Positions 1-3,000 of a stretch of DNA of 43,678 bases are shown one piece after another (position 1 is the stretch's first letter; the number at the start of each line of letters is the position of its first letter). The position numbers are program-made. The stretch covers positions 1 through 43,678 of IMG/VR virus record IMGVR_UViG_2531839668_000011; one strand, given 5' to 3'. The stretch is from a virus (lineage: Duplodnaviria; Heunggongvirae; Uroviricota; Caudoviricetes).

Positions 1-3000
1 TATCGCGTCCTCAACAATGAATTTTGTGATGCGGTGCCTGGTGCCTCCAGGTGACGTTAACCAGTTAACAATTAACGCCGGATACAGAGAATCCACCCAT
101 AACACTGTTTTTGGTTTTAACTGTTCCGCGTGCGCTCAGCCGCATTCACCACATCACAAAATTCACTTTAAAAAGGGCGGCAGAGCAGTCACGGAGTAAA
201 ACTGATACCGCCAAACGTCACCAGAAAATTGATAACAGAGGGCGTTGCAGCGGGGTTGTCACTTAAGCGTATGGTCAACCTGACAACCCGGTGTCCTCAA
301 CGGGGGAAGGAATAACCCCGCCATACTTACCGCCGCGCCATTTCGCGGATTGCCACAACCGGAAGCGCACGGTCGACGAAAATTTAACGACAGGCTATCT
401 ATGAACCAGCTACCTCGCCGTGCGCTTTCGCGTTATGGTCTGACTTTTCAGGGAAATATCCTTTCAGTAAACTGTCAATGCCGGATGCTCACCCGTGTCC
501 GGCGCACGCACTCCACCTCACCCGTGGAGAACTCCTTAATTACTAACCTTAGCTTTGTTGATTAGCTACTAACGCGGGTATGTAATCATTCTGGCAATGC
601 TTAATGCCGCTGCTTTTTCCAGATTGGTGATATCCTGCTCCAGAGCGGACAGATTTTCAGCCTGCTTAGCCCTGGCTTCATTGGCCCATTTCAAATCCTG
701 CGCTGCATTAATTTTCTGGCGCATCCACTCATAAAGTTCATCATCGGTATAGTCTGGCGCGATGATGACGGGTTCTCGTTTCTGCATACTGATTCCTCGC
801 GGTGCTGTTTCGCTTATCAGCCGTTAGATTTTGCCGAACTGGAAAGCGCCTGTTTAAATTCGTTGAAGCCGAGAGCTTCTTCGCCGTCGGCAAGACCTTC
901 GAAGTATTCTTCGTAAGCCTTTTCCATGATTGTGTCGAAATCCATATCACTCACCTGAGTTTCTTTCCAGCCAGCGACGGGCACCATTTTCGGTTTTAAA
1001 CGTTTTGCTTTTGGTATACGTCATCGCGGTGAATGTGCCGTCCTGGTTGGGAAACACGCCGTACACCAGAGATTCGTTGTTGCCAAGACCGATAGTATCC
1101 ATGTTGACCTCATTTCCCCTTAACGCCGGGGTAGCGGAACAAAAACCTGCTGCATAGTTATTAAAGTTGAACCCTGCCGTCATGTTCTTACGCCTCGGGC
1201 TGGCTACTTAACCCCTGACCACTGCCTGGTAACTCGAAGTATTGCCCTGCGTTCTGCGGGACGGGGTGGGTTGGTATGAAAGGAAGGATACCCATGGGTA
1301 TTTAAAAAGTAAATACCCATGGGTAATTTTTTTGATGTGTCTTAACTGGTGACTGGTTGTTTGGTGAGTTATGATGCGTTTTGTGCTTTCTTTTTACGGA
1401 TTTCTTCGTAGATCATATTGTAATACTGTTTTTTCTCTTCAAGAGTTTTTAATAAGTTATCCGCTTCACTTTCTGGCAGTTCGTCTAAGAGATCTAAAAA
1501 AATACGTTGTCGTGGCGTTAGAACCCTTGTTTCATAATTGGAGGCTGTGTTCGTTGATGATGAAACGATACCATCCATCCATCCCCGGGGTAACCCAAAG
1601 GACTCTTCTATAATCTCCACCATATCATCAGCGATCCGTTTTTTCCTTTTTCCCCTCTGGGTACAACATTCTTGATACATAAGAAGGCTCGCGACCGATC
1701 TTTCTGGCCACGTTAACCGCTTTACCATCGCATTTCTCATCACGAATTTTGATGAGTTGTTGTCGTCTAAATTCATATTTGTCCATAGGTAAATAATAGA
1801 TGCGATTACCGCAAGGTAAACAACCTAGGGGTATTGACTTTTGTTTACCTGTGGGTATTCTTTGCTGTGTTTACTAAGGAGTAGCTATGGAAGAATTAAG
1901 AATATTTCTCAATTCTCTTTCGTCAGATGAACAGCGTATGTTTGCATGTGAGTGTGGTACTAGCATCGGTTATCTAAGAAAGGCATTGAGTAAAGGTCAA
2001 ATCTTAGGGGCATCGTTATGTGTCCTTATTGAGCGAGCCAGTAATGGTGAAGTTACACGTCAGCAACTAAGGCCTTTTGATTGGATGAATATTTGGCCCG
2101 AGCTGGAAGATACCAAAACGTTAACACAACCACTTACTAGGAGCTTGATTCATGAAAATCAAGCATGAACACATCCGCATGGCGATGAATGCCTGGGCGC
2201 GTCCTGATGGCGAAAAAGTTCCAGCAGCTGGAATAACCCAGGCTTATTTTGAGTTGGGTATGACGTTTCCTGAACTGTATGACGACAGCCATCCGGAAGC
2301 CCTGGCTCGCAATACCCAGAAAATTTTCCGCTGGGTAGAGAAAGACACCCCTGATGCAGTTGAAAAAATTCAGGCGTTGTTACCAGCGATCGAAAAGGCA
2401 ATGCCACCTTTGCTGGTGGCCAGAATGCGCAGCCACAGTTCAGCTTATTTTCGGGAGCTGGTGGAGACGCGGGAGCGATTGGTGAGAGACGCTGATGATT
2501 TTGTCGCAGTGGCAATCGCCGGTTTCAATCAGATGAACCGTGGTGGCCCGGCAGGAAATGCTGTGGCAGTACATTGACTGACAATAGCCATATCGAATCG
2601 CTTCCGGCAACTCGTGAGTAAAAAGATTCGGTATCAGAAGAGGTGAGTATGGCTAACGCTTGGCTCAGATTATGGCATGACATGCCAAATGACCCTAAGT
2701 GGCGAACAATTGCCAGGGTGTCAGGGCAGCCAATTGCAACAGTGATGGCAGTGTATATCCACCTCCTGGTGAGCGCGTCACGAAATGTCACGCGAGGTCA
2801 CATTGATGTCACGACAGAAGATTTGGCAAGTGCGCTCGACGTGACAGAAGAGGTAATTGATTCAATTTTGCAGACGATGCAGGGGCGGGTACTTGATGGT
2901 GATTTAATCACTGGATGGGAAAAACGCCAGGTGCTTAAAGAGGACAACGGCAATATTTCGCAAACCGCAAAATCTCCTGCAGAGCGCAAGAGGGCGCAGC

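Follow-up and report, generated by a model that had tools for sequence, protein, structure and literature searches.

A dicF-containing direct repeat as the common arm of two prophages, very probably in tandem at serU

Introduction

The dicBF operon of Escherichia coli encodes DicF, a small regulatory RNA (sRNA) that represses manX and, in enterohemorrhagic E. coli (EHEC), activates pchA. Here, we analyze a stretch of viral DNA of 43,678 nucleotides (nt), hereafter called the window (IMG/VR virus record IMGVR_UViG_2531839668_000011, positions 1 to 43,678), in which a segment with ydfA, ydfB, ydfC, and dicF occurs twice, at positions 1-1140 (copy 1) and 30984-32123 (copy 2). DicF depends on Hfq and arises by processing of the dicBF transcript; its targets for repression also include ftsZ, xylR, and pykA, and expression of the entire operon is toxic (PMC5069750).

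The Qin prophage of strain K-12 carries a dicBF operon to which both copies can be compared. Copy 2 and its surroundings are colinear with Qin from dicA through ydfD (2093 nt, 97.85% identity), with 134 of 135 residues of DicA and 53 of 53 nucleotides of DicF identical, and copy 1 matches Qin from ydfA through dicF at 98.2%. However, Qin lies at another chromosomal site, has a decayed int, and contains IS2, whereas the operon of the window belongs to serU prophages with an int-xis-exonuclease arm, and the immunity module next to copy 1 is not of the DicA kind.

Pathogenic strains carry several dicBF loci in different prophages, and EHEC O157:H7 (strains Sakai, EDL933, and 86-24) resembles the window in that one genome has several nearly identical dicF genes, with each gene set in its own prophage context (PMC5069750). 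A review citing Melson and Kendall 2019 gives the number of dicF copies in EHEC as four, with reported roles in the control of pchA and the locus of enterocyte effacement (LEE) and in the control of stx2; under low oxygen, DicF is reported to activate pchA and to repress stx2A (PMC7873438). Unlike in EHEC, the two copies described here are adjacent, since their host prophages very probably lie in tandem at one tRNA site. Tandem prophages of O157 offer a further parallel, in that the attachment site (att) of a resident prophage is reused and recombination between co-resident lambdoid prophages makes chimeras (Asadulghani et al. 2009; PMC2669165). That study dealt with experimental Sp5/Sp15 chimeras and with the tandem pairs Sp17a/b or Sp10-Rac (PMC2669165), whereas exchange in the present case is suggested by painting of single-nucleotide polymorphisms along the arms in public genomes. 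Multi-copy dicF, tandem prophages, and inter-prophage recombination are thus already known from pathogenic E. coli (PMC5069750, PMC7873438, PMC2669165), and the only modestly new element of our analysis is the strain-to-strain variation of conversion tracts centered on dicF.

Results

Extent and identity of the repeat

Gapped self-BLAST of the window aligned copy 1 with copy 2 on the same strand over 1140 nt, with 11 mismatches, 0 gaps, and 99.035% identity (2007 bits, E = 0). The mismatches fall at copy-1 positions 34, 671, 694, 720, 870, 886, 1034, 1037, 1089, 1104, and 1127, and the longest perfect tract between the two copies, in direct orientation, measures 636 nt (copy-1 positions 35-670). 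Four amino-acid changes result from the 11 differences, one in YdfA, two in YdfB, and one in YdfC (Table 1), and none of the differences falls in DicF. Both DicF genes match the Rfam model RF00039 over its full length (model positions 1-52 of 52) at 175-226 and 31158-31209 on the minus strand, each with 76.7 bits against a gathering score of 48, and each is identical to dicF of K-12 MG1655 at all 53 positions (175-227 and 31158-31210).

A first-pass annotation, made by eye from the sequence, had described a near-identical direct repeat with ydfABC-dicF present twice and only a few substitutions between the copies. Its coordinates, orientation, and gene content are all borne out by self-BLAST, and a pairwise identity of 99.04% agrees with its visual comparison. 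The presence of two DicF copies is likewise confirmed by the full-model Rfam matches and by the exact K-12 sequence of both.

The repeat had also been described as 1.1 kb long. Although a block of this length is real, it is only the end of an arm of about 5.5 kb that is common to two prophages. Except for a 2.6-kb gap, the window matches the minus strand of NZ_CP051001.1 (E. coli O157:H16 strain 98-3133; positions 3,650,000-3,695,039) at 99.98% identity, and we use this sequence as the reference. Because copy 1 begins at position 1, its left boundary is the edge of the window and no biological end; by mapping to the reference, position 1 is one base after the dicB start codon of the left-hand prophage (prophage A). 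In the reference, homology between the arm of prophage A and that of the right-hand prophage (prophage B) reaches ~4.35 kb further left of copy 1, for a total of 5491 nt at 93% identity, with the content att-int-xis-exo-ydfD-dicB-dicF-ydfCBA. The identity of arm A to arm B is mosaic there, at 57-100% per 200-nt bin, and the 1140-nt block is its last high-identity patch. The flanks of the two copies are unrelated straight after 1140 and 32123 when compared pairwise.

The complete arm of prophage B, from 26643 to 32123, lies in the window, and its stretch from 27782 to 30599 is the mosaic part of the repeat, with 57-99% identity to arm A in 200-nt bins. In copy 2, dicF sits between ydfC and dicB (30795-30983), as in the dicBF operon; for copy 1, dicB is off the window and is found in the reference.

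Two prophages very probably in tandem at serU

The annotation of the reference places two lambdoid prophages in tandem beside a tRNA-Ser gene and mtfA. Each of them has an integrase, a DUF4224 xis-like gene, a 2.5-kb exonuclease gene, ydfD, dicB, and ydfC-ydfB-ydfA, followed after ydfA by an immunity region, replication genes, and hok/sok. In K-12, serU adjoins mtfA and no prophage is present there; the identity of the tRNA-Ser gene was taken from K-12. Between the prophages, the window contains an exact copy of the last 62 nt of serU, with the prophage A NleG-type genes to its left and int directly after it. An intact serU stands beside the int gene of prophage A in NZ_CP051001.1, BA92, Z1323CEC0012, and DEC5B.

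Self-BLAST further revealed three colinear repeat blocks common to both prophages, namely the DUF977 region (3657-4161 and 34362-34866, 94% identity), hok/sok (5782-6214 and 38270-38701, 96.5%), and a DUF968-side block (6273-6597 and 40977-41307, 82%). Therefore, the window holds two related mosaic elements rather than an isolated duplication.

Altogether, these results make it very probable that the promoter-proximal part of the dicBF early-left operon accounts for the repeat and is carried by each of two degraded lambdoid prophages, which are distinct, heteroimmune, and arranged in tandem at serU. Prophage A would then run from beyond the left edge of the window to about 26640, and prophage B from 26643 to past the window end. 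The window would start inside the left arm of prophage A, such that only the last 1140 nt of the ~5.5-kb arm appear twice, and the operon would read ydfA-ydfB-ydfC-dicF followed by dicB-ydfD. We suggest that the repeat be annotated as the common left arms of two heteroimmune serU prophages and not as a duplicated immunity region.

We searched for the A-att-B junction among 5426 complete E. coli genomes and found it in five. The same pair of prophages is present in only three of these, namely 98-3133, BA92 (O2:H16), and Z1323CEC0012 (chicken). In DEC5B (O55:H7), a different prophage comes after prophage A, and 2013C-4991 carries yet another combination. The serU site is therefore occupied in tandem repeatedly, though not always by the same prophages.

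Immunity regions and expected regulation of the two copies

The homology stops 38 nt upstream of the ydfA start codon (break at 1140/1141), and therefore promoters, operators, and repressors differ between the two copies. On the prophage A side, the intact repressor-position protein of the reference matches phrog_5736 over its full length (PHROGs), and Pfam reported no domain in either the open reading frame (ORF) of the window or the intact 139-residue reference protein. This protein has only 46 C-terminal residues in common with DicA, at 33% identity, and the YdaS-like regulator next to it has no significant similarity to DicC. On the prophage B side lies a Qin-type region with dicA and a divergent dicC. 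The repeat had been called the dic immunity region by the first-pass annotation; this name has to be given up, since the immunity genes lie outside the repeat and are unlike (DicA/DicC in prophage B versus phrog_5736/YdaS-like in prophage A).

The operator-like palindromes also differ between the prophages, being TACCCATGGGTA in prophage A and of the TGTTAGCCATGGCTAA type in prophage B. Two perfect TACCCATGGGTA palindromes stand 13 nt apart between the copy-1 repressor gene and ydfA, and they are probably operators of the phrog_5736 repressor. The only strong call of a terminator scan (1289-1325) coincides with this palindrome pair. From gene position and from the K-12 dicA/dicB paradigm, we infer that the copy-1 operon would be controlled by the phrog_5736 protein and the copy-2 operon by DicA.

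Since both copies are identical to K-12 DicF, their target set is expected to be the same as that of K-12 DicF. The two genes would thus act as independent inputs to one common regulatory output, and the dose would double only if both copies were derepressed or both transcripts stabilized. This qualifies the earlier claim of a second dose of DicF: there are indeed two genes, but the dose is conditional because each copy follows a different repressor-controlled promoter, and at least two loci are the median state in E. coli.

Table 1. Positions of the repeat copies, their genes, and the flanking prophage features in the window
Feature	Position	Strand	Description	Evidence
Copy 1 of shared segment	1-1140	-	Leader, ydfA, ydfB, ydfC, dicF, and dicF-dicB spacer of prophage A	Self-BLAST, reference mapping
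ydfA, copy 1	947-1102	-	DUF1391, 51 residues; G5D versus copy 2	Pfam PF07151, 94.8 bits
ydfB, copy 1	817-945	-	42 residues; D20E and G26S versus copy 2	RefSeq annotation of reference, phrog_2061
ydfC, copy 1	569-787	-	72 residues; R23H versus copy 2	RefSeq annotation of reference, phrog_1744
dicF, copy 1	175-227	-	DicF sRNA gene	Rfam RF00039, exact match to NC_000913.3 dicF
Promoter/operator zone, prophage A	1141-1368	-	Specific to prophage A; two copies of palindrome TACCCATGGGTA at 1289-1325	Homology break, 16-bp stem
Repressor-position gene, prophage A	1369-1786	-	phrog_5736; 139 residues in reference, frameshifted in window	
Cro-like regulator gene, prophage A	1887-2168	+	YdaS-like, phrog_35	
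att core	26643-26704	+	Between the prophages; exact copy of last 62 nt of tRNA-Ser serU; left end of full repeat unit	
int, prophage B	26757-27782	-	Tyrosine integrase, 341-residue ORF; reference gene flagged as frameshifted by the Prokaryotic Genome Annotation Pipeline (PGAP)	Pfam PF00589/PF22022/PF14659
xis-like and exonuclease genes, prophage B	27782-30599	-	DUF4224 gene (27782-27985) and large exonuclease gene (to about 30500-30599)	
ydfD, prophage B	30607-30798	-	DUF1482	Pfam PF07358, 88 bits
dicB, prophage B	30795-30983	-		Pfam PF05358, 127 bits
Copy 2 of shared segment	30984-32123	-	dicF-dicB spacer through leader	Self-BLAST, Rfam, K-12 comparison
dicF, copy 2	31158-31210	-		
ydfC, copy 2	31552-31770	-		
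ydfB, copy 2	31800-31928	-		
ydfA, copy 2	31930-32085	-		
Immunity region, prophage B	32124-32973		Qin-type, outside repeat; operator region with TGTTAGCCATGGCTAA-type palindromes	
dicA	32252-32659	-	134/135 identical to K-12 DicA	Pfam HTH_3, 58 bits
dicC	32743-32973	+	Divergent from dicA	Pfam P22_Cro, 44 bits

Probable exchange between the arms

We aligned the arms from these genomes and painted them at 342 sites that separate the A arm of DEC5B from the B arm of the window. At ten sites between copy-1 positions 671 and 1127, every one of the four A arms carries the A-type allele and every one of the four B arms the B-type allele, across different serotypes, and the last ~470 nt before the end of the homology are free of homogenization in the arms compared. 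Further left, the pattern varies from strain to strain. The longest identical inter-arm tract in 98-3133 and the window spans 638 alignment columns (636 nt, bounded by mismatches 34 and 671), and that in BA92 (NZ_CP176406.1) spans 1814 nt. BA92 is, in addition, B-type in arm A and A-type in arm B over a segment of the exonuclease gene (29508-29846), apparently as a reciprocal swap. The two arms of Z1323CEC0012 are identical but for one position over about 29076-31653 (~2.6 kb) and have in common 25 variants that are absent from all other arms, among them a 2-nt insertion just downstream of DicF and two changes within it, T1A and G12A relative to K-12, which both DicF copies of this strain carry (NZ_CP148435.1 locus, 7000-7200 and 37080-37280).

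Patterns of this kind would be expected from gene conversion or double crossover between co-resident arms. The dicB-ydfD patch in arm A of 98-3133 differs from all other arms at 17 sites, 16 of which equal K-12 Qin, which points to a possible exchange with a Qin-type locus. This patch (NZ_CP051001.1 locus 45040-45424) ends near the dicB start, where the window begins. In BA92 and Z1323CEC0012, moreover, the integrase gene of prophage B contains an inserted ISCro1 (IS66 family).

Direct repeats give rise to deletion, duplication, or gene conversion, and never to inversion. The first-pass annotation regarded the repeat as a substrate for recombination, which is well founded given the 636-nt perfect direct tract and the conversion-like exchange among the three genomes with the pair. 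It further expected deletion or inversion of the intervening 31 kb. Inversion was rejected, because self-BLAST places the repeats in direct orientation. Deletion is plausible: a crossover between the arms would remove 30,983 bp, from the immunity region of prophage A to its NleG-type genes, the att core, and the int-exo-dicB part of prophage B, leaving one hybrid prophage with one dicF. The arm is therefore a plausible route to the deletion of the NleG-type effector genes of prophage A. The predicted deletion junction (4411 nt, comprising A-type arm, shared tract, B-type ydfCBA, and dicA) was found in none of the 5426 complete genomes, in a search that detects crossovers within 35-670 only, since those further left would resemble prophage B alone. 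The best matches reached 94% coverage at 97.2% identity and were devoid of the A-specific 271 nt.

Alternatively, the identity of the dicF region may be actively maintained by recurrent gene conversion, possibly under selection for identical copies or dosage, with the immunity-side edge escaping. Each of the three genomes that contain the pair has an identical tract that spans dicF and ends at copy-1 position 671, and the two copies of Z1323CEC0012 have the private DicF changes T1A and G12A in common, as active maintenance would predict. We nevertheless consider it unlikely. Only three genomes are involved, and the 35-670 tract is also identical in arm A of DEC5B, a strain in which prophage A is not joined by prophage B, and K-12 departs from it at just seven sites, such that plain conservation explains most of the identity. 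A shared right-hand limit at 671 is to be expected, since a conversion tract must be flanked by homology on each side, and polishing artifacts may account for the tracts themselves.

We regard it as quite doubtful, too, that gene conversion centered on dicF is frequent and that all DicF copies of a genome evolve in concert. If this were true, a variant DicF (e.g., T1A/G12A) could spread to every copy, and the multi-copy sRNA would behave as a single evolving locus under host selection.

Alternative origins of the two copies

Two copies that are 99% identical and in the same orientation could also stem from one prophage whose dic region underwent a recent, local segmental duplication, an origin that we judge very improbable. 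An integrase and the serU att core separate the copies, and the immunity, replication, and late regions are unlike. Copy 1 (98.2%) and copy 2 (98.5%) are about as near to K-12 Qin as they are to one another (99.0%). Moreover, the A-type and B-type alleles are kept from one serotype to another, and in DEC5B prophage A is paired with another prophage. Local duplication was rejected on the basis of the K-12 Qin identities and the stability of the alleles across serotypes. Instead, this phage group carries the segment as a highly conserved module, of which there were two acquisitions, and it is present twice in the window because two prophages each carry it.

The possibility that one dicF region was written twice, or that two prophages were misjoined, by an assembly of short reads failing on lambdoid repeats is scarcely credible: the homopolymer indels and the 2.6-kb gap at about 22825, which is found in no complete genome, do suggest an assembly of lower accuracy, but the copies differ at 11 fixed sites, their immunity-side flanks are wholly different, and three complete genomes that are independent of each other (98-3133, BA92, and Z1323CEC0012) show the same A-att-B layout with the same A/B-diagnostic alleles. 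Because of these three genomes, the two-copy structure is not an artifact. The earlier warning of an assembly hazard was reasonable for the region and does not extend to the two-copy structure itself. The arm of ~5.5 kb, with perfect tracts of 0.6-2.6 kb depending on the strain, is a genuine hazard for short-read assembly and polishing.

Besides the 2.6-kb gap, nearly all differences between the window and NZ_CP051001.1 are homopolymer-length indels (1644-1646, 16370, 30310, and 42181). Changes from A6 to A5 and from A7 to A6 at about 1644-1646 frameshift the copy-1 repressor gene, and a change from G5 to G4 at 30310 frameshifts the exonuclease gene of prophage B. These homopolymer frameshifts suggest sequencing error and no real pseudogenization. 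At about 22825, the window is without 2593 nt of tail genes that are present in the reference (gpG, tail tube, gpU, and part of the head-tail joining gene). The junction, at which the two sides overlap by 4 nt (GGTA), was absent from all 5426 complete genomes; the gap reflects a difference in assembly or else an additional deletion in a sister strain.

Several points weigh against the account of two heteroimmune serU prophages with exchanging arms. The left 4.35 kb of arm A lies outside the window, and its presence is taken from the 99.98%-identical reference and not from the window's own genome. A sigma-70 consensus scan of both copies found no minus-strand promoter above threshold upstream of either ydfA. 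The copy-1 repressor gene is frameshifted in the window, and, if this is real, copy 1 would be derepressed and the regulatory picture altered. Finally, the evidence for conversion comes from public assemblies, in which read mis-mapping among dicF loci during polishing could mimic homogenization, and a third dicF locus could be the donor of the conversion tracts.

Distribution of the dicF module

A 441-nt dicF probe matched 10,800 places in 4566 of the 5426 complete E. coli genomes; the number per genome has a median of 2 and reaches 10 at most. In RefSeq, dicF is left unannotated by PGAP in E. coli genomes (no features under the probe matches). The 1140-nt segment is present in 60 deposited phage genomes, five of which contain it at full length with 97-98% identity, and several of the 60 are Stx2-converting phages; PV340562.1 and OV696610.1 are examples of phages with the ydfABC-dicF module. 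A 2016 paper reported no DicB or DicF matches among about 2000 phage genomes.

Other features of the window

Each prophage has one hok/sok type I toxin-antitoxin locus (5801-5976 and 38289-38463; Rfam sok, 117 and 114 bits), and both loci fall within a 433-nt block that is 96.5% identical between the prophages. A phage tRNA cluster at 10221-10735 comprises Met(CAT), Arg(TCG), and Arg(TCT) according to ARAGORN, the first of which RefSeq names tRNA-Ile, and it is followed by the sRNA STnc100 (132 bits). Prophage A ends on the right with an array of NleG/DUF1076 type III effector genes, visible as diverged tandem-like repeats (23160-24837) that recur about every 870 nt at 74-90% identity. In prophage B, nleB2 and nleC are located near the end of the window according to the reference annotation.

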